The position numbers and the translations under genes are program-made. Positions 2,308 through 33,053 of a DNA stretch of 64,000 nt are shown here, one piece after another (positions within the stretch are counted from its first letter, which is position 1; every line of letters starts with the position of its first letter). The stretch is from an uncultured Candidatus Binatia bacterium (GTDB lineage Bacteria > Desulfobacterota > Binatia > UBA9968 > JAJDTQ01). The notes beneath the pieces are model-generated. The model did no database searches, was not told the origin of the DNA, and saw nothing but the letters and a program-made list of their open reading frames with translations. The stretch lies in contig OZ244070.1 of assembly GCA_965215605.1 (NCBI GenBank), positions 1,920,001 through 1,984,000 on the forward strand, read 5' to 3'.

Positions 2308-4716
2308 ATGGCGGATCGACGGAACGGCTCGGAGCCGCCCGCGGCACTGGGCCACCTTCGGGTGGTGGAGCTGGGAGACGTGCCCGCTGCCTACGCGGGC
2401 CGGCTGCTGGCCGACCTCGGCGCCGACGTCATCAAGGTGGAGCCGCCGGGCGGCGCCCCCGAACGCAGGCTTCCACCCTTCGCCGGAGGTGTTGAGGACA
2501 TCGAGCGGAGCCTCACGTCCATCTACGCCAACACCAACAAGCGCGGTCTGGTGCTGGACCTCTCCGCGGCCACGGACCGGGACATCTTCACGAGGCTCCT
2601 GCATTCGGCGGACGTATTCATCGAGGCCACGCCGCTGGGCCGCCTGGAGGAATGGGGCTTCACCGACCCGTGGTTGGAGGAGGCCTGCCCCGCACTGGTG
2701 ACGGTGTCCATGACGCCCTTCGGCCGTACCGGCCCCTACCGTCACTACAAGACCAGCGACGCCATCACCAACGGCGCCGGCGGCTTTCTCTACGGCCAGG
2801 GAGACGACGAGCGCGGGCCATGCACCGCGCCGTCCCACTCCGCCTACCAGGTGGCCGGGTGCGTGGCCGCGACCCTGGCCGTGGCCGGAGTTCGGCACCG
2901 GCGACGCAGCGGCGCGGGCCAGCGGCTGGATGTCTCGCTGCAGGAGGCCCTGACCTTTACCAACAGCAGCTCCATCGCCCGCTACACCCTGGAGAACCGC
3001 ATGGGGCGCCGGCCCGGCGCCAAGACCTACGGCGGCTCGGTGACCAACATCTACCGCTGCAAGGACGGCCGCTACGTCCACTTCACCGCCAACCTGCCGC
3101 ACATGTGGCGCGAGTTGACCCAGAACTGGATGACCGGCACGGTCCTGTCCGAGCCGCAATGGGAGGACATGGCCTACCGGGACGCCCGCAGCGACGAGGC
3201 CTCCGCGGTGGTGGCGGAGTTCATCGGCGGCTTCACTGCCGACGAGTTCGTGGCCGAGGCCCAGGGGCGGCATCTCTCCGCGGCTCCCCTCAACACCGTG
3301 GGCCAGTTCGTGGAAGGCGAGCAACTGGCCGCGCGCCACTGGCTCCAGGAGATCGAGCACCCGATCATCGGCCGCTACCGGGCGCCGGGTTTCCCCATGC
3401 GGCTTTCCGGGACCCCCATGCGGGTGCGCCGTCCGGCGCCGCTGCTGGACCAACACCGGCAGGAGGTGCTGGCCGAGCTGGAGCGGGGCAGGGAACCCTG
3501 TGCGGTGCCCGCGCAGACGGACGCGGAACCGGGCGACGGCATGTTGTCGGGGCTCCGCATGGCCGACCTGACCCAGCAGTTCGCCGGCCCCCTGGGCACC
3601 GAGATCCTGGGCTACTACGGCGTGGAGGTGCTCAAGATCGAGTCCAGCACGGTGGCGGCCCGGGGCCGGGGCGCCGCCATCCACGCCGACATGAACCGGG
3701 CCAAGCTGGGCGTCACCCTGAACCTGCGGCACGACCAGGGCAAGGAGATGTTCCGCCGGCTGGTGGGGCGCTCCCAGTTGGTGGTGGAGAACTTCAGCGT
3801 GGGAGTCATGGAGCGGCTAGGCTTCGACTACGAGTCGCTGCGCAAGGTGAACCCGGGCATCATCCAGGTGTCCATGCCCGGCTGGGGCAGGGAAGGGCCG
3901 CTACGGTCGTGGGTGGCCTGGGGCTGGCAACTCCTGGCCTACACCGGCCTCATGCGGCTCTGGGGCTATCCCGAGTCGCCCATGCGCGCCCGCTGCAAGA
4001 TCGCCTGGCCGGACCGGGTGGGCGCCATCACCATGGCCCTGGGAGTCGCCGCCGCCGTGGAGCACCAGGAACGCACCGGCGAGGGACAGTTCATCGAGGC
4101 CTCCATGCTCGAGGCCCAGGGCGCCATGATGGGCCCCGCCATCCTCGACTACACGGTCAACGGCAACGAATGGGACACGCTGGGATACCGGGAAATACTC
4201 GGGGAGCCCTACGCCCCCTACGGCTGCTACCCGTGTGCCGGCAACGACGACTGGGTCATCATCGCCTGCGAGACCGACGAGGAGTGGCGGGCCATGGCCG
4301 GGGTCATCGGCGCGGGCTCATGGGCCGACGACGAGCGCTTCGCCGACAAGGAAGGGCGGCGGCGGCACCGCGACGAGCTGGATGAGAAGCTGACAGGGTG
4401 GACCCGCACCCAGACCGCCCGCCAGGCCTTCCGCCGCCTCCAGGAAGCCGGCGTGGCCGCCGGCATCCCCATGTCCGGCGAGGACCTCTACTACGACCCC
4501 CACCTGCGCGAGCGCGGCCACATCGTCGAGATGGACGAACCCCCCTGGGGCCGGGTCGGCCACCACGGCATCCCCGGCATCCCGTCCCGCTCCAAGGCGA
4601 GCGCCGCCCAACCCGCGCCCTGGATCGGGGCGCACAACGCCTATGTGCTGGGCGAAGTACTGGGGTTGTCGGAAGAGGAGATCGCCGCATTGGAGGAAGC
4701 GGAGGCGATCAAGTAG
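2308..4716 (+). CDS. Fused two-domain family III CoA-transferase (CaiB/BaiF)
   Basis: Two CaiB domains: LADLGADVIKVEPP/NTNKRG and LSGLRMADLTQQFAGP/NRAKLG. Confidence 0.9.
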   Translation: MADRRNGSEPPAALGHLRVVELGDVPAAYAGRLLADLGADVIKVEPPGGAPERRLPPFAGGVEDIERSLTSIYANTNKRGLVLDLSAATDRDIFTRLLHSADVFIEATPLGRLEEWGFTDPWLEEACPALVTVSMTPFGRTGPYRHYKTSDAITNGAGGFLYGQGDDERGPCTAPSHSAYQVAGCVAATLAVAGVRHRRRSGAGQRLDVSLQEALTFTNSSSIARYTLENRMGRRPGAKTYGGSVTNIYRCKDGRYVHFTANLPHMWRELTQNWMTGTVLSEPQWEDMAYRDARSDEASAVVAEFIGGFTADEFVAEAQGRHLSAAPLNTVGQFVEGEQLAARHWLQEIEHPIIGRYRAPGFPMRLSGTPMRVRRPAPLLDQHRQEVLAELERGREPCAVPAQTDAEPGDGMLSGLRMADLTQQFAGPLGTEILGYYGVEVLKIESSTVAARGRGAAIHADMNRAKLGVTLNLRHDQGKEMFRRLVGRSQLVVENFSVGVMERLGFDYESLRKVNPGIIQVSMPGWGREGPLRSWVAWGWQLLAYTGLMRLWGYPESPMRARCKIAWPDRVGAITMALGVAAAVEHQERTGEGQFIEASMLEAQGAMMGPAILDYTVNGNEWDTLGYREILGEPYAPYGCYPCAGNDDWVIIACETDEEWRAMAGVIGAGSWADDERFADKEGRRRHRDELDEKLTGWTRTQTARQAFRRLQEAGVAAGIPMSGEDLYYDPHLRERGHIVEMDEPPWGRVGHHGIPGIPSRSKASAAQPAPWIGAHNAYVLGEVLGLSEEEIAALEEAEAIK

Positions 4717-4725
4717 CCCGCGGTT

Positions 4726-5454
4726 TCAGGTTGGTCTGGAACTCCCCACGTTGGGCATCTGATCCCACACTTGGTTGTCCAGGGTTCTTCCTGTTCTCTT
4801 CTTGAATACCCCGCCCCATTGCTTGAAAAAGAATGGCACCTTGTTCTGTAGGCAGTTGTCGCGGATTTCCCGTATCCAGTCGGCTTCCATCGGTCGTGCC
4901 CTCGGTCCCGATTCGCCGCCGACAATCACCCAGTCGATGCCATCAAGGGGCATGCCCGTTAGTGGTCCAAGCAGGGGTTCCAGCGATAGAAATTTGACCA
5001 AAGCACTGGTTTCTCTGAGTCGCTCCAACCTGTCCAACCACCGTACCGACTCGATACTCGTTCCGAGCCAGATATTCGGCGTCCATGACAGCCGGTTCTT
5101 TAGTTGTAAGACCCGCCCGGGTCGCTTGGTGAGCACCTGGAAGGTGTGTTGGGGTGAGCGGTTCATAGCATCGAACACCGCACCGATGAACTCGGTCGGG
5201 ACCGATTTGTGGAACAGGTCCGACATGGAGTTGACAAAAACAAGATGCGGCCGACGCCAACTCGCGGGCTCCTCCAACGTACGCGGGTGGACGGTTACCT
5301 TGAAGCCCTCTCGGTACTTGTGCGCCCCCATGGCTTGCAGCCGCCTGGACATACGCTCCGCGTAGCAGTGTTTGCAGCCAGGACTGATCTTCGTGCACCC
5401 GGTTACCGGATTCCAGGTGATCTCAGTCCATTCGATGGCGGAGCGAGAAGCCAT
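4726..5454 (-). CDS. DUF5131 (phage Gp37/Gp68-like) three-Cys-motif protein
   Basis: [50 protein letters not shown]. Confidence 0.92.
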
Positions 5455-5456
5455 GC

Positions 5457-5576
5457 CTAAAGATGTTCCAGGATATGCCCTGCGATACGTTTGGCAGTGG
5501 CTGTTCCTTTCGGATTGCCTACGCAGAACAATAGCTCGAACAACGGCGAATTCCTGGAGTTCCTCGGCAGTTGGTC
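5457..5576 (-). pseudogene. tcmP: 3' remnant of three-Cys-motif partner protein TcmP
   Basis: [32 protein letters not shown] resembles TcmP C-termini; its stop is 2 nt before the DUF5131 start; upstream part replaced by a crotonase gene. Confidence 0.65.
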
Positions 5577-5581
5577 GATCT

Positions 5582-6472
5582 TTATGAATGCGCCCCTTTG
5601 GAGAACGGCCCGAAGGGTTCCGGGCGGAAAGGCTCGTCCCGGGCTTCGAAGAAGGCCCGCAGGCCGCCCTGCTTGCGGGCGTCCTCCAGCCTCTTGTTGA
5701 ACTCTTCCCGTTTGGAGAGCCGGGCCATGGCGCTCAGCTCCGAGTTGAGCAGCCAAGCCTTGTGGAGCCCCATCATCTCCAGCCCCTGGGTGGCGATGGC
5801 CAGGTTGATCTTCACCGTCTCGGGCGGCACCAGGGCCACGCGCTCGACCATGCGGAAGCATTCCTCCAGGAGTTCCTCCCTGGGCACGACTTTGTTGACC
5901 AGGCCGATGCGGAGCGCTTCCCCCGCGTCCACGTGGTCGCCGGTGAGGGCGTAGCGCAGGGCGTTCTTGGGGCCGGCCAGCAGCACCCAGATGAAGTCGG
6001 TGCCGGCGGCTTGGCGCACTTGGGGCTGGCCGAACACGGCGTCGTCCGCGGCCACGGTCAGATGGCAGGTCAGGGCCAGCCACGAGGCCGTGCCCAGGCA
6101 CCAGCCGTTGACCGCGCCGACGATGGGCTTGGGGTACTCCCAGCGGTAGAGGCGCCGCCGCAGGATTTCCTCGCGGTCCTTGTCCCGGACGTCGTCGAAC
6201 TCCTTGTAGAGTGGCACTCCCTCCGGCAGGGCTTGGGGCCACACGGTGTCGGGGACATCTTCCCCGGACATGTCCTCGCCGGTGGAGAAGCAGTCGCCCG
6301 AGCCGGTGAGAATCACGCCCCGCACTTCCGGATCGTCCTTGGCCTCGGCCAGGGCCGTGTCGAGCTCGGCCAGCAGCGCCTCGCTCAGGGCGTTGCGCCG
6401 TTCCGGACGGTTGAGGGTGATGAGGACGCCGCTGCGTTGTTTTTCGTAGAGGATGTTCTGATAGGTGGTCAT
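5582..6472 (-). CDS. Enoyl-CoA hydratase/isomerase family protein
   Basis: [37 protein letters not shown]. Confidence 0.9.
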
Positions 6473-6529
6473 GGGGTCTCCTCGCGGGATGTTCGTTTCC
6501 GGGTGCCGTGTGGCCTTCGGCCGGCGGCC

Positions 6530-7408
6530 TTACTCCTTGGGCTTCGATCTCGGACCGAACGGTTCGGGCTGGAACGGACCGTCGCGCAGTTGCAGGTACT
6601 CCCGGATGTTCTTCTCCCTGGCCTCGTTGAGCGGGCGGCGGTGCTCCTCGCGCAGCATGACGTGGGCGGGGGCCGAGAGCTGGGAGTCCAGCATCAGGGC
6701 GTCGCGCAGGCCCATCATCTCCATGCCCAGGGTGGCGATGGCGAGGTTGATCTTCACCGTTTCGGGCGGCACCAGCGCGATGCGGTCCGCCAGCTCGAGG
6801 CACTCGTCCAGGAGCCGCTCATGGGGCACCACCTTGATGACCAGGCCGATACGCAGGGCTTCCTGGGCGTCGATGTGGTCGCCCACCAGGCCGTAGCGGA
6901 GCGAGTTCTTGACCCCGGCGAGCATGGTCCAAAGGAAGCTCGTGTTGGAGCCGTGGCGCACCTCGGGCTGGGCGAAGACCGCGTTCTCCGAGGCGATGGT
7001 GATGTGGGTGCACAGCGCCAGCCACGAGCCCGCGCCCATGGCCCAGCCGTTGATGGCGCCGATGACCGGCTTGTCCAGCTCCCACAGCCGCAGGAACTCG
7101 TTGCCCTCCCGGCCGCGCCAGGAGTCGATCCAGTCCGACGCGGACTGCCCCACCGGAACGCCGTACGGCCACTCGAGATCGCGCCGCCGCCCGGGCTTGG
7201 GTCCCTGGTCCATGCCGGCGGAAAAGGCGCGTCCGGCGCCGGTGATGATGACGGCCCGCACCTCCGGGTCGGCCACGGCCTCGTCCAGCGCCGCAGACAT
7301 CTCGTGCTGGACCGTGGGGCTGATGGCGTTCATGACCTGCGGCCGGTTCAGCGTGATCAACCCGGCGGCGCCGCGTCGCTCGTACAGAATCTCGGTGTAG
7401 TTTGCCAT
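6530..7408 (-). CDS. Enoyl-CoA hydratase/isomerase family protein
   Basis: ITLNRPQVMNAI, GRAFSAGMD, KPVIGAINGWAMGAG, FAQPEV. Confidence 0.92.
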   Translation of the reverse strand: MANYTEILYERRGAAGLITLNRPQVMNAISPTVQHEMSAALDEAVADPEVRAVIITGAGRAFSAGMDQGPKPGRRRDLEWPYGVPVGQSASDWIDSWRGREGNEFLRLWELDKPVIGAINGWAMGAGSWLALCTHITIASENAVFAQPEVRHGSNTSFLWTMLAGVKNSLRYGLVGDHIDAQEALRIGLVIKVVPHERLLDECLELADRIALVPPETVKINLAIATLGMEMMGLRDALMLDSQLSAPAHVMLREEHRRPLNEAREKNIREYLQLRDGPFQPEPFGPRSKPKE

Positions 7409-7426
7409 GGGGTTATTCCTATCTTC

Positions 7427-8062
7427 TTATTTCTCTTTCTTCCACACGATGCGGTAGATGCCGGCGATGTCGGCGAGCGGCATGATGATGGGGTCGTAGC
7501 CGTGGGCGATGCTGATGAGGACCAGATTGCCGTTCTGTTTCTTGATGCGCTTGATCAGGTACTCGCCGCCCACGGTCTTGACCACGCAGTAGTCGCCCGA
7601 GTGCCATTCCTTGTTGGGCGAGCACACGACGATCTCCTTGTCCTCGTAGCGCGGGCTCATGGAGTCGCCGCGGACCTCGACCCCGAAGGCGTTGGCGTCG
7701 CCGAGGTCGTAGGGGCGCGACACCCGGCGCCAGCCCTCGCCCACCGGAAAGCCGTCCTCGGAGAACTCCCCCCGGCCGGCGCCGGCGCGTCCCACCACCG
7801 GCAGGTCGTCCGGCACGTGGCCGGACACGTCCCGCACCTGGTCGTTGGTGGACAGGAGCCATTCCAGGGAGACGCCGCACACCGACGCCAGCCGGTGCAG
7901 GATGGCGGACTGCGGCGCGCGGTCGCCGGCCATGTAGTTGTAGACCGCGGTCTTGGAGATTCCCGCCCGCGCGGCCACGTCCAGCGGGTCCCGGTCCGCT
8001 AGGGCGAGGGTCAGGCGACGGGCGAGATCGGTCTTGGGTAGTCTTGTTTTTTTCCTTGGCAT
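7427..8062 (-). CDS. XRE HTH + S24 peptidase (CI/LexA-like) repressor
   Basis: N-terminal HTH (VAARAGISKTAVYNY), AG cleavage site (VGRAGAG), catalytic VRGDSM and LIKR. Confidence 0.9.
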   Translation of the reverse strand: MPRKKTRLPKTDLARRLTLALADRDPLDVAARAGISKTAVYNYMAGDRAPQSAILHRLASVCGVSLEWLLSTNDQVRDVSGHVPDDLPVVGRAGAGRGEFSEDGFPVGEGWRRVSRPYDLGDANAFGVEVRGDSMSPRYEDKEIVVCSPNKEWHSGDYCVVKTVGGEYLIKRIKKQNGNLVLISIAHGYDPIIMPLADIAGIYRIVWKKEK

Positions 8063-8091
8063 CGTGTATATAGTTCTCGATTGAAAAAATG

Positions 8092-8129
8092 ATTGACATT
8101 ATAGTAGTCAATTGATAACTTCCCGTCAA
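8092..8129. promoter_or_regulatory. Divergent promoter/operator region
   Basis: ATTGAC-N9-GTCAAT palindrome (8092-8112); + strand TTGACA-N17-TAACTT; exact TATAAT on the - strand (8098-8103). Confidence 0.6.
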
Positions 8130-8172
8130 GCAGCGGTCATGACGCGACTCTCAACGGGAAGGAAGGACCAAG

Positions 8173-8451
8173 ATGGCAAGTGAGACGAAACGACATCTGA
8201 AATCGGTGGCTGGAGGCCGCGAAACGAAGAAGTGGGTGGAGGTGGACGCCTCGCTGGTAGGGCTATCGGTGCTCTCGGCCCTGCACAAGCTCGACCACGG
8301 CGAGGAAGACGAGGCCGACGTGGAAATCGGCGGCCGCACCCTGCGAATCCGTCTTGACCCGCTCAAGAAGCGCGTCCTGATGTTCGAGCTCAAGAAGACC
8401 CGAAGCCGCAACCCCCGCCTCGGCGGTCCCGGCACCAAGTCCCTCCACTGA
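8173..8451 (+). CDS. Small hypothetical protein divergent from the repressor
   Basis: GGAAGGA RBS, GC3-rich codons, 92 aa, no recognisable family. Confidence 0.65.
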   Translation: MASETKRHLKSVAGGRETKKWVEVDASLVGLSVLSALHKLDHGEEDEADVEIGGRTLRIRLDPLKKRVLMFELKKTRSRNPRLGGPGTKSLH

Positions 8452-8473
8452 GACCGGCGACGCCACCGGCGGC

Positions 8474-8640
8474 ATGCCGCGTGACGACCGAATCACGCGC
8501 CAGTGGCGGCCGCCGGAAGTTGGAGGGCTCCCGAGGGGCGACCCTCCAGCCGCATCCTTGCCTGAATACGACTCGCGCCATCCCCGCATCATCCGGCGTC
8601 ACCTCGAAGCCATCAAGGCGGTCCGCATTCCCCTGACAAG
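8474..8640 (+). pseudogene. Degraded 5' fragment of a WYL/HTH regulator
   Basis: MPRDDRITRQW...AASLPEYDSRHPRIIRRHLEAI aligns with the N-terminus of the intact WYL at 27175; indels and truncation. Confidence 0.8.
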
Positions 8641-8661
8641 CTGGCATCATTTACCGGGTCT

Positions 8662-9108
8662 TCATCCCCTCCCCGCGCGCGAGTGCGCCGACCAGGGATT
8701 CAATATGGGAACCCCGGTTCCCTGGAAGTCCTTCTCGTTACGGGTACAGAGTGTCAGGGAGTGCACTCGTGCCGTAGCTGCGATGAAAAGGTCCGGCTGG
8801 CCGAAAGTGATGCGCCTGTCTCTGCCCCACGCGACCATACGCCGCCATTCCAGAATCACTTCCTCGTCTACCGGAAGGATGCGCCCCGCGAACCAGGGTC
8901 TCAGCCGCTGGGCGAGCCAAGTTTCGAGCTCCTGATGAGGAATGAGGTCGGTTTGTCGCTCGATTCCGAAACGAATCTCTGCGAGGGTCACGCTGCTCAA
9001 GAAGAAGCCATCCGATGGCTGCGCATCGGACCACGCCTTCACCCGGCCATCGGGTCGGGTCTTGCGCAACTCGGATACGACGTGCGTGTCGAGCAGCCAT
9101 CCGTTCAC
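8662..9108 (-). CDS. vapC: PIN-domain (VapC) toxin
   Basis: WLLDTHVVSEL, DLFIAATA, TRNEKDF; overlaps the antitoxin stop. Confidence 0.92.
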   Translation of the reverse strand: MNGWLLDTHVVSELRKTRPDGRVKAWSDAQPSDGFFLSSVTLAEIRFGIERQTDLIPHQELETWLAQRLRPWFAGRILPVDEEVILEWRRMVAWGRDRRITFGQPDLFIAATARVHSLTLCTRNEKDFQGTGVPILNPWSAHSRAGRG

Positions 9109-9401
9109 AGATCGACCTCTCGAACGGGGCTCCTTACGCCTTCGTCGCCAAAGTCCAAGCGGTTCAAGGGGGACTTGGACAACAAATCGTGCAGGCTCAC
9201 CGACTCAGCGCGCGCGCAAAGGCGTTCAAACTCGGACGTCGCGACGATGACGACGGTATCCTTGCCGCGTACCGTTACATGCTGCGGTTGACCGGAGGCG
9301 GCGAGGCGGACGACATCGCTGAACCTTGCCTTGGCCTCCCCTAGCTTCCAACCGTGAAGCGCTGTCGGACTGGTCTGCGAACCTTGACGAGACTTACCCA
9401 T
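9105..9401 (-). CDS. Phd/YefM family antitoxin
   Basis: WKLGEAKARFSDVVRLA...PQHVTVRG; upstream palindrome TGACC-N5-GGTCA (9419-9433). Confidence 0.88.
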   Translation of the reverse strand: MGKSRQGSQTSPTALHGWKLGEAKARFSDVVRLAASGQPQHVTVRGKDTVVIVATSEFERLCARAESVSLHDLLSKSPLNRLDFGDEGVRSPVREVDL

Positions 9402-9524
9402 GTGGCTCGCTCTTCTTGTGACCGGATTGGTCAAGATTACAGGGGAGGGAAAACCCTTTCAAGGGTCGTCGAAGGAGTAGGTAGGGCCAAGGTCAGCCGG
9501 GACACTGACGACGCGGCGTACCGC

Positions 9525-9559
9525 GCTTCAATGAGGCCGAGGCAATCACGCCTCGGATC
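9525..9559 (-). repeat. Solitary CRISPR-like repeat, type I-G (I-U)-like, copy 1
   Basis: Minus strand GATCCGAGGCGTGATTGCCTCGGCCTCATTGAAGC: 7-bp hairpin CCGAGGC/GCCTCGG and 3' ATTGAAGC end. Confidence 0.75.
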
Positions 9560-9909
9560 CCCGGTGGCGTTCGATGTAGCGGCGGGTCTCTGGACGGCGT
9601 ACCCATCGGACGAGCAATGTACTGTGGATCGCACGGTTGAGCTTGCCCCAGCATACCTCAGGCAGGTGGTCTCGCCGTGGTCCAAGGAAGCACGGATCAG
9701 GCGCACCGGCCGGGGCATGTAGGAGAAGACCTGATGCTCCCGGAGGCAGTTGGATCGAGCATCTCGTCTTGAGGACGGTGAGGGCCGCTGACGTTGAGTC
9801 AGTAGTGCGCGGCAAGCGATGTACACAATTCCGAACGCCGCTGGCAAAGGAGTCCAGCGGACTAATGACGTCAAACCCGGCGGCGCTGAGTCGGTCCGGT
9901 GGCTGCGGT

Positions 9910-10119
9910 TCACGCACGGTCGAACTCCTGACGCGTGATGCCGAGGTCTCTCAGGATGGCTCTGACGGTTCCCGTTTTCAACTCGTGGCTGCCCCAGTTG
10001 GGGATGGTCGTCCTGCGGCCGTTCGACGATCGAATCCAGACCTCGTGGTCGCCTCGGGCGCGTCGATCCAGGTTGCATCCGAGTCGGCGCAGCTTGCGCG
10101 TGAGTTCGCCGTACCTCAA
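9910..10119 (-). CDS. hicA: HicA mRNA interferase toxin
   Basis: KLRRLG...RGDHEVW...TTIPN...LKTGTVRAILRDLGI. Confidence 0.88.
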   Translation of the reverse strand: MRYGELTRKLRRLGCNLDRRARGDHEVWIRSSNGRRTTIPNWGSHELKTGTVRAILRDLGITRQEFDRA

Positions 10120-10379
10120 ACTGCAACCATGACCTCACCGAGGCCCTCGTGCTGCAGAGCGTCAACGATGGCTGCTTCAACCTTTTCCGGGAGCGGCTCG
10201 CCACGGTCCCGGTAGGACTCGATGAAAGCCGTGGCAACGCCCTGAAGACTCTCCAGCGCCTGCACACGGGTGTCTCCCCAAGCGCGACAGCCGGGTAAGT
10301 CGGGGATTTCGGCAAGGTACTTGCCTTCGGTTTCCTCCGATGGATCCCGCAGGACGAATCTTAGCCTGTATAGTTCCAT
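10116..10379 (-). CDS. hicB: HicB family antitoxin
   Basis: YLAEIPDLPGCRAWGDTRVQAL...GEPLP; 4-nt overlap with hicA. Confidence 0.9.
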   Translation of the reverse strand: MELYRLRFVLRDPSEETEGKYLAEIPDLPGCRAWGDTRVQALESLQGVATAFIESYRDRGEPLPEKVEAAIVDALQHEGLGEVMVAV

Positions 10380-10631
10380 TTCAGCATCCTCGGCTCAGAC
10401 GCAAAGCGTTCACAGCATCGTTCGTGGTCCCGAAGTTTGCCGGATTTTTCCGGTCGTGGCAAGAAAGGGAGGTGGCCACGGACTGACGGGTGTTCCGGCG
10501 CCGGACCTACATCCGCTGGCTCGAGTCGCGGATCGCCGAGCTCTCGGAGAGAGAGCGCGCGCCCGGGAGCGAGGCTCCCAAGCAGTTGTCTTTATTCCAC
10601 TAAAGGCGAACTGCAAAGTGACGCGCCAAGC

Positions 10632-11039
10632 CTAGGCGTCCCCCCGCACCGTTATCGCCAAAGGATGGTCCAGGAGTTGACGGTCGGCCGTGAGGAGCTT
10701 CAGGTTTTCTTCTTGAGCCTGGACGAGCAGAAGTTCGTCGAACGGGTCTTTGTGGTCCAGCGGTGTTGCAAGCGTGCGTGCGGCGTGCGCGGCGGTCATC
10801 GGCAGAAGCGTCACATCCTGTGCTCTCAAGACGGCGATCGCGTCGTTCGGTTCGAAGGGACTCTTTCGTGTTCCCGACCGGCGGCGAGCGCTGTGCTTGA
10901 GACGCATTTCCCAAATCGACACAGCACTCACGAAGAGCTCCGACCCGTCGCTTTGGAAGAACCTGCGTTCAGCCGCCAGGAGTTTTCCCGGTGCCTCCAT
11001 GAGGTCGTAGAGATAGGAGGTGTCGAGAAGAATACGCAC
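10632..11039 (-). CDS. vapC: PIN-domain toxin with no adjacent antitoxin
   Basis: RILLDT, VSAVSIWEM, HKDPFDELLLVQA, LLTAD. Confidence 0.9.
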   Translation of the reverse strand: MRILLDTSYLYDLMEAPGKLLAAERRFFQSDGSELFVSAVSIWEMRLKHSARRRSGTRKSPFEPNDAIAVLRAQDVTLLPMTAAHAARTLATPLDHKDPFDELLLVQAQEENLKLLTADRQLLDHPLAITVRGDA

Positions 11040-11065
11040 GGACCGCGGTTCTATTCTTGCTCGTA

Positions 11066-11097
11066 TTCAATGAGGCCGAGGCAATCACGCCTCGGAT
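11066..11097 (-). repeat. Solitary CRISPR-like repeat, type I-G-like, copy 2
   Basis: 32 nt identical to 9527-9558 (TTCAATGAGGCCGAGGCAATCACGCCTCGGAT on the + strand). Confidence 0.75.
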
Positions 11098-11138
11098 TCC
11101 GCCCGAACCTCCTGCTGGATGGCGACCGACGTGTCTGG

Positions 11139-11357
11139 CTACGTGGTTGGCGTCCGGCGTTTCCTTGCAATTACTTCGCCGGCTACTCGGTCCACTTCTA
11201 CTTTACTCTGTCGCAGCAACTCGATCTCATAAGGAGTCAGCATCCGGGGAGCGGGCGATTTGCCAAGCCACCGATTGAGCAGTTCGATGGACGGGGTGGC
11301 CGAGGTGCCTCTCCGTGCATTGCTCAGACTCTGTTTCGTAGCGTTGTCCGACTTCAT
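11139..11357 (-). CDS. Small hypothetical protein
   Basis: 72-aa ORF with a helical-looking C-terminus LTPYEIELLRQSK; no family recognised. Confidence 0.4.
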   Translation of the reverse strand: MKSDNATKQSLSNARRGTSATPSIELLNRWLGKSPAPRMLTPYEIELLRQSKVEVDRVAGEVIARKRRTPTT

Positions 11358-11389
11358 CCAACTGTTTTAGGAAGTTGATTTTGACCGAG

Positions 11390-11449
11390 GCAGTCCCGCT
11401 CGCGTAGTTCGCGGAACGTCTGCGTGTCGATAGGGAGCCGTTGTTTCAT
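11390..11449 (-). pseudogene. 5' stump of an AAA-ATPase-like (PD-(D/E)XK-associated) gene
   Basis: MKQRLPIDTQTFRELRERDC matches the LPIGIQxFxxLRxxxxYYVDKT N-terminus, then breaks off. Confidence 0.65.
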
Positions 11450-11465
11450 GGGCGGTTGCCCGAGG

Positions 11466-12485
11466 TTAGTCGCTTCCTCGAAATCCCTCAACCCTGACCG
11501 CCCGCGCCGTCGCCAGCGACTCCGCCGCGGCCTCGGCAACGGCCAGCGCCGCCAGACCGTCCTGTCCGCTCGGATAGGCTACGTCACCGCCCCGGACCAG
11601 AGCACAGAACGCCGCCATCTCTTCGCGGTAGGCGCTGGCGTAGCGGTCCATGAAGAAGTCGTTGAGGGGGTCGGTGGCGAAGCCCTCCCGGCCGGCGCGG
11701 GTGACGGTGGTGGCCACGGGGTTGCCGGCGGAGACCATGCCCTGGGAGCCGTGCACCTCGATGCGTTGATCGTAGCCGTAGACGGCGCGGCGGGAGTTGG
11801 AGATTACGCACAGGCGGCCCCTCGCCGAACGCAGCAGGGCCACCGCGGTGTCGATGTCGCCGGCCTCGCCGATGGCGGTGTCGATGACAGCCGATCCAGT
11901 GGCGCTGACCTCGACGATGGACTCGCCCGCGAGGTACCGGGCCATGTCGAAGTCGTGGATCATCATGTCCTTGAACAGGCCGCCGGACCGTTGAAGGTAT
12001 TCCATCGGCGGCGGCGCGGGATCGCGCGAGGTGATCTGCACGAGTTCGACGGTTCCGATGCGGCCGCGGTCGATTTCGTCCCGCAGGCGCCGGAACGACG
12101 GGTCGAAGCGGCGGTTGAAGCCGATCATCAGGGGAACGCCGCCACGCGCGGCCGCGTCCACGGCTCGCTCCGCCCGGGACAGATCCAGGTCGATGGGCTT
12201 CTCGCAGAAGACCGCCTTGCCCGCGGCGGCTGCCCGTTCGATCAGGTCGGCGTGCAGGTCGGTGGGGGTCGCGATGAGGACGCCTTCGATGGCGGGGTCG
12301 CCCAGCACTTCCTCGACGGAGGCGGCACGAGTGCCGGTCGCCTGGACCACCGACGCCACGGCAGCCTCGTCGGGATCGGCCACGGCAACCAATCGGGCTC
12401 CCTCGATGGCCGCGACGGACCGGGCATGGGTCTTGCCGATGCGGCCGGCTCCCAGCAGCCCCAGCCTGACGGGATCGTCCGTCAC
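11466..12485 (-). CDS. iolG: myo-inositol 2-dehydrogenase
   Basis: GLLGAGRIG, FCEKP, GFNRRFD, ITSRDP, DMMIHDFD, YGYDQRIEV. Confidence 0.93.
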   Translation of the reverse strand: MTDDPVRLGLLGAGRIGKTHARSVAAIEGARLVAVADPDEAAVASVVQATGTRAASVEEVLGDPAIEGVLIATPTDLHADLIERAAAAGKAVFCEKPIDLDLSRAERAVDAAARGGVPLMIGFNRRFDPSFRRLRDEIDRGRIGTVELVQITSRDPAPPPMEYLQRSGGLFKDMMIHDFDMARYLAGESIVEVSATGSAVIDTAIGEAGDIDTAVALLRSARGRLCVISNSRRAVYGYDQRIEVHGSQGMVSAGNPVATTVTRAGREGFATDPLNDFFMDRYASAYREEMAAFCALVRGGDVAYPSGQDGLAALAVAEAAAESLATARAVRVEGFRGSD

Positions 12486-16050: not shown

Positions 16051-18021
16051 CTATCGTTCCGCCCTCACACCGGTGCGTGCCTCGTCCCATGCGTCGCAGA
16101 GCCGGGCGAAGTTCCCGGCCATGCGGGCCACGGCCTCATCGTCGGCCATGTTGCCGGCCATCCAGGCGCGCGCCACATCTCCGAAGATCGTACGCCCGAC
16201 GGCAAACCCCTTCACCATCTCATGCCCGGCCGCGGTCTGGAAGCTCGCCCGCAGGTCTTCGAAGGGCGCGTCCAGGCCCAGGACCACGATGCCCCGGCAG
16301 TGCGGATCGTTGCTCTCGATGGCGGCGCACGCCCTTCGCCAGGCCGCGTCCGATACCATGGGCTCCAGCTTCCACCAGTCGGGAAAGACGCCGATGGCGT
16401 AGAATCGTTCGATGACGGCGGCGGTGGTCGAATCGTCCACCGGCCCGAATTTCGACGGGATGATTTCCAGCAGAAAGTCCAGCCCGTTGGCGCGGGCGGC
16501 CTCCGCCAGACGCTTCACCGTCGCTTCCTGGCCGGCGCGCAGTTCCGCCGGGTCGCCGGGCCGATAGAAGCAAAGCACCTTCACCACGTGCTCGGCGGGC
16601 CACTCCGCCAGCGCCGAGCCGAAGTCGTTGCCGATCTCCAGCCGCAACGGTCGGCTGCCGGGCCGCTCCACCGGACGGCCGATCCACAGTCCCGTGCCCG
16701 CCGCCGCGTAGAGCACGTCCCGGCCCAGGCGGCCGTCGCACAGGATGCCGTACCCGTGGCGCCCGCCGGCGACCCGAAGCGCCGCCTCCAGGCACAGGCG
16801 CTTGAACGCGCCGATGCGCTCCACGATGACGGCCTCCTCCAGCGAGGCGCGGCTGCCTCGTGCGATGTCCTCTTCCGTCCCGACGCTGCACTCCCTGGCG
16901 ATGTCCTCGAATTGCGAGCGGTGATCGAAGGCGAAGACGTGCATGCTCGGCCACGCCCTGGACCGGTTCGTGGCCCAGTGGAGCTGCTCCAGGCGCGCGT
17001 CCTGGCGGACCGCCGGCGTCGATGGCCCGTTTTCCATGAAGTCGCGCAGCTCGACGGCGCTGGGATAGGCCGGCGTGCAGCCGTGGCGCGACACCGCCAG
17101 CGCGCCGCAGGCGTTGGCGATACGCAGGGTCCGGGCCCAGGCCTCTCCCGAAAGCCAGCCCTTCAGCAGCCCGGCCATGAAGCCGTCGCCGGCTCCCAGG
17201 ACGTTGAACACCTCGACCTCGAACGGCTCTCCGCTCACGCCTTCGTCGAGGCTCGCCGGGATCGGCCCCTCGAAAACGGTGGCGCCGCCGGCGCCGCGCT
17301 TGCACACCAGCGCCGCCTGCGACACCGTGCGCACGTTGGCCAGCGCTTGGACCGTGTCGGATGCGCCGCCGGCAATGTGGAACTCCTCCTCCGTGCCCAC
17401 GATGACGTCGAACCGCGCCAGGGTGCCTTGCAGCCTGGCGGTCACCGCCGCCGACTCGATGAAGCGGTTCTCGCCGTCGCCGTGCCCGGAGAGGCCCCAC
17501 AGGTTCGGCCGGTAGTCGAGGTCGACGATGGTCCTGGCGCCCGACTCCCGGGCCAGGTCCAGCGCCCGCAGGGTCGCCGCCTCGGTGCGGGGATGGGACA
17601 GGTGGGTGCCGGAGGCCAGCACGCAGCGCGCCTCGGCGATGAAGTCCGGGTCGATGTCGTCCGGCGACAGCGCCATGTCGGCGCAGTTCTCGCGGTAGAA
17701 GATCAACGGGAACCGTTCCTGGTCGCGTATGCCCAGCAGCACCAGTGCGGTCAGCCGTTCCGGATCGGTGATGACGCCGCGGACGTCCACCCCTTCGGCC
17801 CGCAACTGCTCGCGGATGAAGCGGCCCATGTGCTCGTCGCCGACCCGCGTGATGACGGCGGACCTGAGGCCGAGCCGCGCGGCGCCGGCGGCGGCGTTGG
17901 TGGGCGAGCCGCCGATGTACTTGCGGAACGACCGCATGTCTTCGAGCCGTCCGCCCACCTGGCCGCCGTAGAGGTCCACCGACGAGCGGCCGATGGCGAT
18001 GACGTCGAGAGCCCGCTTCAC
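16051..18021 (-). CDS. iolC: 5-dehydro-2-deoxygluconokinase fused to DUF2090 domain
   Basis: [18 protein letters not shown] (PfkB), then [20 protein letters not shown]. Confidence 0.93.
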
Positions 18022-18839
18022 ACGGTACCGCCCAGGGAGCCTTCGAGCCGCGCCAGTTCCTGGCCGCCGGCCATCATGTCCTGAAGCTCGTCGGCCTTGA
18101 TCTCCCCGCGCATGGCCGTGCCCAGGGTGGCGCCGCGGTTCAGCACCGTGTAGCGGTCGCCCACGGCCATGGCGTGGCGGACGTTGTGGGTGATGAAGAC
18201 CACGCCGATTCCGGATTTGCGGACCCGGTCGATGGTGGTCAGGACGTTGGACGTCTGCCGCACCCCCAGCGCCGACGTGGGCTCGTCCAGGATCAGGATC
18301 TTGGCGCCGAAGTAGACGGCCCGGGTGATGGCGACCGTCTGGCGCTCGCCGCCGGAAAGGGTCCCCACGGCCTGGGCGGGCTCGCGCAGGCGGATGCCCA
18401 TGTCGGCCATCCGGGTCATGGTGACCTCGTTGGCCTTCCTGAAGTCGATGTGCCTGAACGGCCCCCAGCCCTTGGTGGGCTCGCGGCCCATCCAGAAGTT
18501 GCGGGTCACCGACATCAGCGGGATCATCGCCAGGTCCTGGTACACGGTGGCGATGCCGGCCAGCATGGCGTCGCGCGGGCTCTCGAAGGTCACCGGCTGG
18601 CCGCCCATGAAGATCTGCCCGCTGGTGGGCTTGTGCACGCCGGACATGGTCTTGATAAACGTCGATTTGCCGGCGCCGTTGTCTCCCAGCAGGCAATGAC
18701 ATTCCCCCGCGTGCACCGCCACCGAAACCCCCGCCAGGGCGATGACCGCGCCGAAGTGCTTCTCGATCTTTTGCAACTCGATCAGCGGGGCCTCGCCGGT
18801 GTGGACATCGCGCATGTCATAAAGCGGTTCGCTCATCAT
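18018..18839 (-). CDS. Sugar (inositol) ABC transporter ATP-binding protein
   Basis: [22 protein letters not shown]. Confidence 0.92.
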
Positions 18840-19933
18840 CGTTCTCCCGTGATCATGCGGCGGATGTAGGTGTTCAGGATCACCGCCAACAACAGGATAA
18901 GGCCGAGGAAGACCCGGAACAGGCTGCTTTCCACGCCGGTGAAGAAGAGGCCCTGTTGCACGACGCCGAAGATCAGCGCTCCCAGGGCCGCGCCCACCAC
19001 CGAGCCGTAGCCGCCCGTCAACAACGCGCCGCCGATGACCACGCAGATGATGGCTTCGAATTCCTTCAGCAGACCGCGGTCGGCGGCGGCGGAGCCGAAC
19101 TCCATCACCTGGCAGGTGGCGAAGACCGTGGCGCAGAACGCCGTCAGCATGAACATGAGGATCTTGACGCGGTTCACCGGAACGCCGGTGTAGAGCGCGG
19201 CCTGGGCGTCGCCGCCCGAGGCGTAGATCCAGTTGCCGAACTTCGTGCGGGTCAGCACCCAGTGCCCGATGATGACCAGCACGATGGCCCACACCATCAG
19301 CATGGGAATGCCGTCGACGATGGGCTCGCCCGCCCGGCGGCCACGGGTGAAGGTCTCGATCATCCCCATGTCCGCGAGCCAGACGAACAGGCCTTTGAAT
19401 ATCTTGCCGCCGAAAAGCGGCGCCAGCCAATCGCCCGCCGCGGCTTCCTTGACGCCGCCGATGATGGTCTTGCGGGTGGCGGCGATGGACAGGAAGATCG
19501 TCAGGCCGCGCAGGATGTAGAGAAACGCCAGGGTGACGATGAAGCTCGGCAGGCCGGTCTTGATCACCAGCCAGCCGTTCAGCGCCCCCAGCGCGATGGC
19601 GATGGCGAAGGCCAGAACGATGCCGGTCCATACCGGAAAGCCCCACTGGACCGAGACGATGGCGATGACGATGCCCGCGAACCCGATCATCGAGCCCACC
19701 GACAGGTCGAACTCGCCCGAGATCATCAGCAGGCACGCGCCCACCGCGATGATGGCGAACTGGGCCGAGACGATGCCCCAGTTCATGGCCCCTTCCGGGC
19801 TGAACATCCCGGTGTCGGCCGCTACCAACAGAAAGAATACGAAAACGAGGATGGTGCCGCAGATGGCGCCCAATTCGGGCCGTATCATCGCGCGGCGGAA
19901 CGATGACATCTCCTTCAAACGTTCGTCGGCCAT
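18836..19933 (-). CDS. Sugar (inositol) ABC transporter permease
   Basis: [29 protein letters not shown]. Confidence 0.92.
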
Positions 19934-28158: not shown

Positions 28159-28171
28159 CCCCGGATGTCAC
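28155..28171. promoter_or_regulatory. Candidate WYL operator upstream of cas3
   Basis: GTGAC-N7-GTCAC palindrome overlapping the WYL stop codon. Confidence 0.45.
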
Positions 28172-28284
28172 TCCTGCCTGCTACCTCTTACGGCCAAGCC
28201 CTCGCGATTCGTTTAAGGACGGCGCGAGAGGCAGAAGGTGGCCGCACGGGACGGAACGATTCAGCGCGATGGATGAGGGGTGAC

Positions 28285-30825: not shown

Positions 30826-30937
30826 GGTGCGCTTTTCGCTATAGGAAGCAAATTCTCCTAATGAATGCCGGCTGCGTTGATTGTCCACATGAAAGCGCTA
30901 TCCACTTTGGATGCAACTGAAACATCGGAATTCGCAA

Positions 30938-32488: not shown

Positions 32489-33053
32489 CGACGTGAACCA
32501 GAGTGCGGTCGCCGCGGCCCGGATGCTGCAAGGGCTTGAACCGGGACCATTGGCCGAACTGCGCCGGATGGAAACCGGCGCGGGGGCGGCCGGGTTCTGG
32601 CGCCTGGCAGCGCAGCATCCCGAAACCATCGGACGCGACCAGGAGCCATGGATGGCCATCATCCGCATCATGGCCATCCTGACTACCAGGGGCGAGCCGG
32701 CGTCACGCCGGCCTTTGCATGACGCCAAGCGGCGTTTGGGCGCGGTATTGTGTGACGGCGGCGATCCAGGTTGGCCGGGGTCCGCGCCACCCCGCGCGGT
32801 ACTGAGCGAGCCTCGCCTCGGACGGCTCATTGCCTCCCGTGGCAAACAGCGCGCGGTGTTGTTGACCCGCGCCGTGCGCGCCATCGCCCGCACCCGGCAG
32901 CCAGACAGCGGGGTCAACGTCACCGACATCGCCTGGGCATTGCTGGATTCGGATTCCGACCGTAGCGGGCGTCAGCTCGCTGAACCGTACTACCGCCGGC
33001 TGGACCGGGCCGAGCGCGAACACCGAACCGACGAAGAAGGAGCCAAAGAATGA
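32475..33053 (+). CDS. cse2: Cascade small subunit Cse2 (Cas11)
   Basis: GPLAELRR, LSEPRLGRL, LAEPYYR; AGGAGG RBS; operon position. Confidence 0.85.
   Translation: MPKTDDVNQSAVAAARMLQGLEPGPLAELRRMETGAGAAGFWRLAAQHPETIGRDQEPWMAIIRIMAILTTRGEPASRRPLHDAKRRLGAVLCDGGDPGWPGSAPPRAVLSEPRLGRLIASRGKQRAVLLTRAVRAIARTRQPDSGVNVTDIAWALLDSDSDRSGRQLAEPYYRRLDRAEREHRTDEEGAKE

Follow-up and report, generated by a model that had tools for sequence, protein, structure and literature searches.

Two copies of a CRISPR-like repeat lie about 1.5 kb apart among toxin-antitoxin (TA) genes in an uncultured Candidatus Binatia bacterium. Do they take part in the control of the neighbouring toxins, or are they left over from an array? 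A first-pass annotation had offered both views: processing sites or mini-guides that place TA expression under a Cas system acting in trans, or the ends of a cassette of gene size that an eroded array had taken up. According to our analysis, the repeats are most probably a non-functional fragment of a type I-G array, with a 1.5-kb TA mosaic at the position of a spacer, inside a collapsed I-G locus. We regard the pair as an ordinary relic.

The repeat pair and its type

A repeat search of the window (the whole stretch of 64,000 nucleotides analysed here) located the exact 32-nt core of the pair at 9527-9558 and 11066-11097, in agreement with the first-pass annotation. The extended repeat comprises 35 nt with one mismatch (9527-9561 versus 11066-11100), the first 32 nt being exact. 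With up to three mismatches allowed, there are exactly two sites in the window (shuffles with any match: 0 of 100) and the same two in the whole assembly G000 (8 contigs, 4,057,781 bases; reversed control, 0). A scan of the assembly with the repeat model exceeded 20 bits at two sites only. The copies, as delimited by this model, are:

9525..9561, minus strand: I-G repeat copy 1 (rep1), RF01330 34.7 bits, model positions 1-37
11066..11101, minus strand: I-G repeat copy 2 (rep2), RF01330 29.7 bits, model positions 6-35

The interval between rep1 and rep2 is 1504 nt (1539 nt from start to start). Rep2 ends 26 nt ahead of the start codon of a PIN toxin gene and rep1 ends 90 nt ahead of the start of vapB. 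The gene content between and downstream of the repeats, all on the minus strand, had been described correctly, as judged by open reading frames and Pfam matches.

Read on the minus strand, each copy consists of a 7-bp stem (CCGAGGC/GCCTCGG) followed by CCTC and a terminal segment, ATTGAAGC in rep1 and ATTGAATA in rep2; hairpin and end sequence read as the first-pass annotation had written them. The 3' end of rep1 is canonical, and its 5' end carries two changes with respect to the genus consensus (GGATCC for GATTCC). In rep2 the 3' end is degenerate and the 5' end reads GAATCC. The copies differ from each other at both ends, in position 2 and in the final two positions, and have a T-to-A change near the 5' end in common. 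A 26-mer with this variant was found in 0 species representatives in the genome_contigs scan, and no other genome searched has it. Exact scans of metagenomes for the two repeat-flank junctions gave 0 matches each.

The identity of the cores had been taken as a sign of selection or recent origin. At the divergence of the flanks from the congener G022 (5.7-7%), a simple Poisson estimate gives about two expected differences in 32 nt and P(0) of ~0.11-0.16. The identity is therefore unremarkable and selection is not needed; it would reflect recent common descent of rep1 and rep2.

The two copies are genuine type I-G CRISPR repeats, as had been proposed. They match the Rfam family CRISPR-DR16 (RF01330) with E-values of 5e-6 and 2e-4 (1.9-kb search); both scores are below the gathering score of 35 bits and lower than those of the array repeats at six relatives' loci (36.7-42.8 bits). 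Arrays with a 36-nt repeat of the same sequence are present in 6 of 27 genomes of the same genus and in 0 of 33 searched genomes of two other families. Eight congener arrays have repeats of 36 nt and spacers of 34-41 nt. The array of G022 adjoins a full I-G operon (Csb1/Cas7g, Csb2, Cas3g, Cas4g/Cas1g and Cas2), the genes of which match the I-G models TIGR02570, TIGR02165, TIGR02621, NF049934 and NF049935. Cas4g/Cas1g and Cas2 also adjoin the arrays of G021, G024, G012, G003, G026 and G022b. A dispersed REP or MITE end was considered as a separate candidate and rejected: G000 holds two copies, and the copies of the relatives lie in arrays.

According to PMC9638904, Csb2 cleaves I-G repeats 4 nt past the stem and leaves an 8-nt 5' handle. 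Judged from its letters, the geometry in the window fits this rule, with a 7-bp stem, 4 nt and the 8-nt ATTGAAGC. The difference from RF01330 repeats in arrays is that the window has two copies only and that the assembly lacks cognate cas genes. Instead of the regular units with spacers of about 34-41 nt that mark a functional array, 1504 nt of genes separate the copies.

The collapsed I-G locus

The setting of the repeats is chromosomal, a hotspot bounded by iolG and a LexA-like gene; a viral decoy of the Racr type would instead be encoded in a phage or prophage and act against a cognate host system, and the open reading frames of 7-14 kb were the ones covered with respect to phage genes. In G022 and G020 this interval contains orf72, csb1, csb2, cas3g, a Cas3-extension gene, vapBC, cas4/cas1, cas2, leader and array, and the full I-G locus of G020 sits at the same site as that of G022. 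The window has cleanly lost 6.9 kb with the effector genes and 5.5 kb with the adaptation genes and the array, and orf72 and vapBC alone remain. Synteny with G022 amounts to 93-94% on both sides and across vapBC. Positions 9496-8650 are collinear with 9769-10615 of the G022 locus L037 and positions 8636-5593 with 16158-19188, while 2888-9769 and 10615-16158 of L037 have no counterpart in the window. The remaining parts of the locus are:

8636..8650, unstranded: junction from the loss of cas4/cas1, cas2, leader and complete array (a 5.5-kb segment in G022), from the G022 L037 alignment
8662..9108, minus strand: vapC, PIN toxin and partner of vapB, Pfam PIN 3e-11, 94% amino acid identity to G022
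9105..9434, minus strand: vapB, Phd-type antitoxin, TIGR01552 4e-10, 89% amino acid identity to G022
9496..9517, minus strand: remnant of the orf72/csb1 intergenic region and effector-deletion junction, 14-nt match to G022 L037 2894-2907
11139..11357, minus strand: orf72, a small conserved gene, retained, 97% amino acid identity to the G022 copy

Within 9496..9517 the 14-nt match to G022 is followed by the junction and then by the homology of vapBC. In G022, G020 and G024, vapBC lies between the effector and the adaptation genes. Orf72 accompanies the I-G loci of G022, G020, G021, G012 and G003; compared with G021, its substitutions number 10, 12 and 39 at the first, second and third codon positions, and searches with family models gave no family match for it.

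A tblastn search of nine G022 proteins against the 8-contig assembly (E<=1e-3) returned only orf72, vapB, vapC and vapC paralogs. At this threshold Csb1, Csb2, Cas3g, the Cas3-extension protein, Cas4/Cas1 and Cas2 have no match in the assembly, which comes from a community sample and is 97% complete. The search for a cognate I-G locus that the first-pass annotation had called for was thus negative in the organism's own assembly and positive in its relatives, with arrays and I-G cas genes in congeners such as G022. The only Cas system in the assembly is a type I-E system, whose repeat is indeed unrelated. In run X1 the window contigs reach a depth of only ~4-5; the same run also holds contigs with the canonical arrangement of repeat, 38 nt and repeat, and the summed depth at repeats is high. 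Because the community sample contains canonical arrays too, an I-G system may exist in the unassembled part of the organism or in a neighbour.

The repeat-bearing block and the probable order of events

Both repeats belong to a block of 1.6 kb inside the collapsed locus. Its features are:

9518..11140, minus strand: the block (flank, rep2, TA mosaic, rep1, 7 nt), missing from the block-less allele
9646..9735, unstranded: 90-nt fragment of a longer element that is multi-copy in the genus, many congener copies, 83-93% identity
9910..10119, minus strand: hicA toxin, Pfam HicA_toxin 1.7e-15
10116..10379, minus strand: hicB antitoxin, Pfam HicB_lk_antitox 9.4e-7
10495..10542, unstranded: short dispersed piece at the PIN/hicBA seam, many congeners, 92-95% identity
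10632..11039, minus strand: orphan PIN (VapC-like) toxin gene, intact open reading frame, antitoxin missing, Pfam PIN 3.3e-13
11102..11138, minus strand: 37-38-nt stretch from the orf72 stop to rep2, length within the spacer range of 34-41 nt

An allele without the block was found in runs X5 and X6, where one contig each joins window position 9502 to 11141 and skips 1638 nt. The 18 letters between these positions are identical to the G022 sequence past the orf72 stop. The contigs run unbroken across the vapC/flank junction, and both deletion junctions are the same as in the window. At the orf72 stop this allele has the state of G022 (TGA plus AA) and no extra G at 9503, and therefore looks ancestral. 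Since the collapsed locus of related strains does without the block, the block is most likely a later, dispensable insertion; this order of events relies on parsimony and on two contigs, one per run, from two runs of a single study.

The interior of the block is a mosaic. The matches of its components (the PIN gene, hicBA and the two dispersed fragments) differ in place and in congener from one component to the next, and the interior is contiguous in 0 of 27 congeners. The hicBA module is found at other places in G009, G015 and G003 (88-95% identical). The piece at 10495..10542 recurs in several genomes as query positions 524-571, and module boundaries meet at query 566/567. For the 90-nt fragment, nine relatives' copies share homology with one another that extends past both ends of the window piece. 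The homolog of the orphan PIN gene in G001 (~80% identical) is preceded by an 87-aa open reading frame, judged by eye to be a Phd/YefM-like antitoxin, and the homology of the window gene to relatives begins 2 nt ahead of its start codon; the gene would have reached its place through a break that severed its antitoxin. The earlier description of the surrounding DNA as decayed applies to the fragments between the genes, but PIN, HicA and HicB are intact reading frames with Pfam matches.

The stretch 11102..11138 may be a complete spacer or else a stub of the donor array's leader. In local alignments with the leader ends of eight relatives its similarity is weak (best p=0.0085, others 0.13-1.0); depending on the leader, 1 to 116 of 256 real spacers score as well.

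Taken together with the state of the locus, we propose the following course of events. The fragment would consist of two neighbouring repeats with flanks of a type I-G array. The block probably entered after the collapse of the locus by illegitimate recombination, and the donor array may have belonged to a second I-G locus, since lost, or to foreign DNA. Without Csb2 and Cascade the repeats would not be processed and would guide nothing. The second option of the first-pass annotation, the capture of a gene-sized cassette by an eroded array, came close to this.

Damage of this kind is found elsewhere in the genus. In G012 an element inside a repeat was recognised from its sequence, by eye, as IS1595-like, and G003 and G021 have a MITE-like insert and a 482-nt insert ahead of the last repeat. 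The window's own I-E array is split by IS21. G022b and G024 carry TA pairs behind the last repeat, and the place where G024 has its array end is occupied in G012 by a solitary repeat, TA genes and a partial repeat. Mobile DNA in arrays and TA genes at array ends thus recur in the genus. When the long gaps in the arrays of G021, G003 and G012 and the interior of the block were compared with one another by blastn, no homology emerged.

As to its position, the block lies within ~20 nt of the effector-deletion junction. GCC is the only sequence shared on both sides, and the junctions are messy. If the donor had nothing to do with the locus, the landing of the block so close to this junction in an I-G relic would be a strange coincidence, and this counts against the explanation that we prefer.

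This coincidence would vanish if the block predated the loss of the cas genes, perhaps in the form of a mini-array ahead of csb1, and the block-less allele had arisen by deletion between the GCC triplets. The position just upstream of the former csb1 start is suggestive in this respect, since autoregulatory mini-arrays in other type I systems sit at such a position (preprint 10.1101/2023.03.03.530964). We nevertheless consider such an origin in place unlikely. In G022 and G020, orf72 and csb1 are only ~40 nt apart, with no repeat in this gap, the block-less allele looks ancestral rather than derived, and slippage that spans 1.6 kb with just 3 nt of homology is a rare event.

A further possibility is a gene-sized spacer: the Cas4/Cas1-Cas2 integrase of a once-active I-G system would have placed 1.5 kb of DNA at the repeat nearest the leader, with duplication of this repeat, and the array end would later have moved to the relic. 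In line with a duplication, both copies have the T-to-A change that all other genomes searched lack; ordinary neighbouring repeats share variants as well, though, three adjacent ones in G024. The leader-like character of the 37-38 nt upstream of rep2 fails for seven of the eight leaders, rep1 and rep2 differ at both ends, and the interior is composed of modules that occur elsewhere only separately. We therefore regard this route as very improbable. The integration of kilobase-sized prespacers is not known to have been described. One detail speaks in favour of it: the left edge of the insert lies within 2 nt of the 3' end of the repeat, with no spacer remnant, which a random break would not predict and which is at odds with our preferred explanation. 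It is equally doubtful that the 1.6-kb unit is a TA cassette between duplicates of an I-G repeat, an integrase-captured oversized spacer or a repeat-bounded mobile unit, able to land in a dead CRISPR locus. If this were true, CRISPR repeats would be the ends of a cassette-capture system for TA genes in Binatia.

A proposed regulatory role of the repeats

We consider it very unlikely that the repeats are functional cr-like elements, at which cleavage by Csb2 in trans or guiding of Cascade would set the transcript level of PIN-hicBA and vapBC in the manner of CreA-CreT or the cas8 mini-arrays. The full stem is kept in both repeats, rep1 has a canonical 8-nt end, and both are upstream of toxin units on the same strand. 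I-G loci of this genus and, by a figure legend of PMC9638904, of Thioalkalivibrio contain or adjoin TA genes, and canonical arrays are present in the same samples. On the other hand, the assembly is devoid of I-G cas genes, the resident I-E repeat is a different one, the block-less allele exists, and rep2, with its altered handle, falls short of the cut-off score. The spacing of 1.5 kb compares with spacers of 20-60 bp in regulatory mini-arrays (preprint 10.1101/2023.03.03.530964). No stand-alone repeat (E<=0.1) was detected in the cas regions of six relatives (G021, G024, G012, G003, G026 and G020).

A target-like match of the flanks is also missing. The first-pass annotation had recommended to map the ~35 nt past the repeats; the 36 nt past each repeat have exact matches of at most 14 nt in the genome (E>=0.29), which is the level of chance, and the longest exact match of the repeat flanks in the genome is 15 nt (E>=0.08), again at chance level. 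The four flanks have no match among 256 spacers of relatives (best, 10 nt), and these spacers give a single borderline match in the genome, outside the window. Sigma-70-like promoters number 0 in 8500-11600 with 0.3 expected, a count of little meaning for this lineage because only the sigma-70 consensus was used. Run X21, presumed to be RNA, yielded nothing. Control of the TA genes through processing sites or mini-guides, as first suggested, is thus not borne out: I-G cas genes are absent from the assembly, the spacing is 1.5 kb, flank matches stay at chance level and an allele without the block exists.

A Cas-independent cis element, with the GC-rich hairpins stabilising the RNA of the TA transcripts, offering RNase sites in it or serving as protein operators, is extremely unlikely: the hairpins are stable (-15.7 and -19.3 kcal/mol in 46-nt contexts) and upstream of both toxin units, but they fold no better than shuffles (z -1.2 and -1.4), have no T-run and are not among the terminator-like sites of a scan, their sequence is fully explained as a CRISPR repeat, and the region upstream of vapBC is the same in G022 with no preceding repeat.

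Comparison with known systems and meaning

The state of the window, which we interpret as an inert array fragment in a dead locus, resembles orphan or degraded arrays and arrays disrupted by mobile elements, with cas genes lost, repeat ends degenerate and foreign DNA between repeats. It differs from them in the place of the repeats, which is not the former array site but that of the effector genes, upstream of vapBC; moreover, a related allele that has undergone the same deletions lacks these repeats. With CreTA and the mini-arrays it has in common one or two ectopic repeats in a CRISPR-Cas locus adjoining toxin genes. In those systems, according to PMC9458426 and 10.1101/2023.03.03.530964, the mini-array spacer is partly complementary to a promoter and the cognate Cascade is required; in the window, by contrast, the interval is 1.5 kb of TA coding genes, with no target match and no Cascade in the assembly. 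The term 'I-G' does not appear in the main text of the preprint. For Thioalkalivibrio sulfidiphilus, the legend of Figure 1 in PMC9638904 describes a type I-G locus with an embedded TA module. This is comparable to vapBC within the I-G loci of G022, G020 and G024; unlike the module in that legend, the TA genes of the window outlived the cas genes, and the PIN gene at 10632-11039 lost its antitoxin.

A solitary CRISPR repeat beside toxins invites a regulatory story, and the presence of cognate Cas proteins and the syntenic site of relatives are the first things to check. The locus also provides a natural series of CRISPR-Cas loss in an uncultured lineage with three states: an intact I-G locus (G022 and G020), a fully collapsed locus with orf72 and vapBC only (the X5 and X6 contigs), and a collapsed locus with a re-inserted array fragment (this genome). 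In this series TA genes and a small conserved open reading frame outlast the cas genes, and across the genus TA modules and mobile elements are repeatedly found at the ends of I-G arrays.

A pair of type I-G repeats

The window carries a direct repeat of 35 nt with one mismatch (9527–9561 and 11066–11100), the first 32 nt being identical. The first-pass annotation had described this pair, and searches of window and assembly confirm it: at ≤3 mismatches there are two sites in the window (0 of 100 shuffles) and two in the whole host assembly (G000; 4,057,781 bases, 8 contigs), where the window occupies C1:1920001–1984000. The CRISPR-DR16 covariance model gave 12 matches at E ≤ 10 in G000, exceeding 20 bits only at the two window sites. 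The sequence is therefore no dispersed REP or MITE end with many copies, the alternative named beforehand. At the divergence of the flanks, exact identity over 32 nt has a chance of 11–16%, and selection, which had been suggested, is not needed to explain it. The toxin–antitoxin (TA) genes and their common strand are as annotated:

11066–11101, minus: repeat, copy 2
10632–11039, minus: PIN gene, between the copies
10116–10379, minus: HicB, between the copies
9910–10119, minus: HicA, between the copies
9525–9561, minus: repeat, copy 1
9105–9434, minus: Phd-type VapB, downstream of copy 1
8662–9108, minus: PIN/VapC, downstream of copy 1

Long ORFs run antisense to real genes, one of them 804 aa in length (5588–8002, plus) and facing the crotonase and LexA-like genes; such ORFs are usual in high-GC DNA and are most likely spurious.

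The type I-G assignment of the repeat is correct, as judged from congener arrays and geometry. On the minus strand the copies score 34.7 and 29.7 bits with Rfam RF01330 (CRISPR-DR16; gathering score 35). At ≤3 mismatches the repeat occurs in 6/27 same-genus genomes, all six with arrays, and in 0/33 genomes of two other searched families of the order. Six stretches of genome_contigs, every one titled as a Candidatus Binatia MAG, contain the exact canonical repeat. Eight parsed congener arrays have repeats of 36 nt and spacers of 34–41 nt. In the repeat, a 7-bp stem is followed by CCTC and ATTGAAGC; this is the geometry published for Csb2, whose cut lies 4 nt 3' of a 7-bp stem and produces an 8-nt handle (PMC9638904). 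Beside the array of the congener G022 lie:

Csb1/Cas7g (TIGR02570, 1.6e-22)
Csb2 (TIGR02165, 3e-80)
Cas3g (TIGR02621, 2e-236)
I-G Cas3-extension protein (NF049934)
Phd/VapC pair
Cas4g/Cas1g (NF049935, 8e-237)
Cas2

The collapsed locus

The minus strand of the window was aligned to the G022 locus (L037). The iol genes together with a 72-codon gene, orf72, match at 93% (14028–11141 = L037 1–2888), vapBC at 94% (9496–8650 = L037 9769–10615) and the LexA-like and crotonase side at 93% (8636–5593 = L037 16158–19188). In this alignment the window has no counterpart of the four effector-module genes (L037 2888–9769, 6.9 kb) or of the adaptation genes, leader and 44-repeat array (L037 10615–16158, 5.5 kb). 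A complete I-G locus occupies the same site in G020, where the repeat is a loop variant. Between iolG and the LexA-like gene the genus has a variable hotspot, ranging from ~0.15 kb (G019) to ~16 kb (G020).

A tblastn search with nine G022 proteins against G000 (97% complete, 5.7% contamination) returned orf72 (97%), VapB (89%) and VapC (94%) at this locus and distant VapC paralogs elsewhere, but no Csb1, Csb2, Cas3g, extension protein, Cas4/Cas1 or Cas2. The check for a cognate I-G locus proposed earlier thus yields no I-G cas gene in this assembly. A single Cas system was seen, a type I-E operon at 28.1–36.5 kb whose repeat is unrelated to the I-G repeat:

28165–36544: type I-E cas operon (cas3, weak cse1 match, cas7e, cas5e, cas6e, cas1e)
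37032–37245 and 39824–40343: I-E array in two parts, IS21 between
37781–39597: IS21 (istA 37781–38803, istB 38686–39597), splitting the I-E array

In G019 the site holds orf72, ~70 nt, vapB and a truncated vapC, with no repeats or cas genes (L063 3011–3766, C2:782011–782766); judging by its junction sequence, which is unlike that of the window, this is a second, independent relic. The hotspot of G006 (C1; L069 3290–5120) contains another CRISPR adaptation module, with 34% (Cas1) and 48% (Cas2) amino acid identity to G022.

The small conserved orf72 accompanies the I-G loci of the genus (window 11139–11357; L031 4207–4416; L040 7418–7624; L041 8520–8720; L062 15417–15629; L063 3011–3226) and has no family in Pfam or NCBIfam. 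Compared with G021 it shows 10, 12 and 39 substitutions at codon positions 1, 2 and 3, and is therefore under purifying selection. A second effector variant (L031 2862–5312 in G021; also L040 and L041) has 37–40% amino acid identity to that of G022. Here the Cas5-like and Cas6-like halves of Csb2 match ~1 kb apart with orf72 between them in another frame, and this Csb2 may be in two parts or interrupted by a large insertion. Cas4/Cas1 and Cas2 at the other congener arrays are 87–99% identical to those of G022 at the amino acid level, across both effector variants, which suggests that modules have been exchanged.

Make-up and probable later arrival of the repeat-bearing block

Both copies share a T-to-A change, reading GAATCC or GGATCC vs GATTCC in all relatives; no species representative in genome_contigs contains the 26-mer with this change. 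Copy 2 has lost its last two handle bases (ATTGAATA) and copy 1 has an additional change at position 2. Upstream of copy 2 lie 37–38 nt, the length of a spacer, with a weak and not robust likeness to the leader ends of relatives. Only 7 nt follow copy 1 before the target sequence resumes.

The interior between the repeats (1504 nt) is a mosaic that is contiguous in none of the 27 congeners. The PIN gene is ~80% identical to genes in G001, G017 and G015; a G022 site matches the 3' part of this gene and the region downstream at 95%, and hicBA is 88–95% identical to sites in G009, G015 and G003. A 45-nt seam piece and a 90-nt piece (9646–9735) are parts of elements that the genus carries in multiple copies; the latter belongs to a longer element with many congener copies (L071–L079, 83–93%). 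On the plus strand of the window this piece resembles the 3' end of a gene. Before the PIN homolog of G001 stands an 87-aa candidate antitoxin ORF, which by eye we take to be Phd/YefM-like. In the window, homology of PIN to its relatives begins 2 nt before the start codon, and the toxin gene has therefore been severed from its antitoxin. A contig of the public run X5 (record 14) contains PIN and 24 nt of upstream flank to 11064 without the repeat, so that the foreign DNA has its left edge at most 2 nt from where copy 2 ends. The most natural reading of the block is a stretch of a putative I-G array in which TA debris would have taken over the space between the repeats; in order, it would comprise a spacer or leader end, a repeat, the insert, a second repeat and the first part of the following spacer.

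In G022 the stop codon of orf72 (TGA) is followed by AA and a stretch starting GCCGCGTCGTCAGT. Fourteen nucleotides of this stretch lie in the window at 9517–9504, 7 nt past copy 1, and homology to the vapB upstream region starts a few nucleotides beyond them. The block is therefore flanked by the orf72 stop on one side and the old orf72/csb1 spacer stub on the other. Immediately past this stub is the effector deletion junction, 20 nt from the insertion point; the two block junctions have GCC alone in common.

Contigs from four public runs in Logan were compared with the window over 8600–11400. X5 and X6, which share an organism label and a study, each contain one contig joining 9502 to 11141 and skipping 1638 nt; the 18 joining letters (sense strand) equal the G022 sequence past the orf72 stop. 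These contigs run unbroken across the vapC/flank junction (8636–8650) and have a 192-nt deletion within vapC. This allele has both window deletions with identical junctions and lacks the repeats and PIN-hicBA. At two small indels, one at the orf72 stop and the other an additional G at 9503 of the window, it agrees with G022 against the window. X5 also holds block-bearing pieces (records 11 and 12; 9480–9771 at ~97%), so both forms coexist in that sample. The simplest order, from one contig per run in one study, would be deletion of the effector and adaptation/array parts in a common ancestor and later entry of the 1.6-kb block (~11140–9518) in the lineage of the window.

Arrays elsewhere in the genus also hold inserts. 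A repeat in G012, with a 7-bp duplication, is interrupted by an element that has terminal inverted repeats and whose transposase is by eye presumably IS1595-like; G003 and G021 have inserts before the last repeat (316 nt, MITE-like, and 482 nt). At a site syntenic with the trailer end of the G024 array, G012 has one solitary full repeat, after which come TA-like genes, remnants of VapC and a partial repeat of 17 nt; we take the TA-like genes, by eye, to be higBA-like. At a second G022 locus a VapBC-like pair lies within ~200 nt of the last repeat. The published Thioalkalivibrio I-G locus contains two TA systems between csb2 and cas4-1 (PMC9638904). Spacer 3 of the G012 I-G array matches 22/23 nt at G000 C1:3468345–3468367, outside the window (E 3e-4); this could be a protospacer within a mobile element of the host genome, or a chance match.

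Regulation or relic

We consider it likely that the window holds an inert piece of type I-G array whose two repeats enclose TA genes, in a CRISPR-Cas locus stripped of its cas genes. The first-pass annotation had proposed that the repeats may be processing sites or mini-guides through which a Cas system acting in trans controls the TA genes, or else the boundaries of a gene-sized cassette in an eroded array. Regulatory mini-arrays have spacers of 20–60 bp, conserved places in cas loci and a partial promoter match (10.1101/2023.03.03.530964), and CreA-type RNAs are described as dependent on the cognate Cascade (PMC9458426). In contrast, 1.5 kb of coding sequence separates the copies here. The 36 nt past each repeat, which the annotation had suggested comparing with TA promoters, have only chance-level matches in the genome (≤14 exact nt, E ≥ 0.29). 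The cas regions of six relatives contain no stand-alone repeats at E ≤ 0.1, the hairpins fold no better than shuffles (z −1.2 and −1.4), and a related strain does without the block, as the block-less allele indicates. A search for sigma-70-like promoters over 8500–11600 found none, the consensus being a weak test for this lineage. The regulatory reading is not supported.

The source of the window is a community, since window contigs in the public run X1 have a depth of only ~4–5. Contigs in which two canonical repeats are separated by 34–40 nt are present in X1, X5 and X6, and an I-G system therefore exists in these community samples, whether in this organism or in another. CRISPR-Cas loss, orphan repeats and arrays invaded by mobile DNA are all familiar events, and the window adds a further example of them. 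Its main residual value lies in a three-state series of locus decay and in the apparent re-insertion of an array fragment near a deletion junction.
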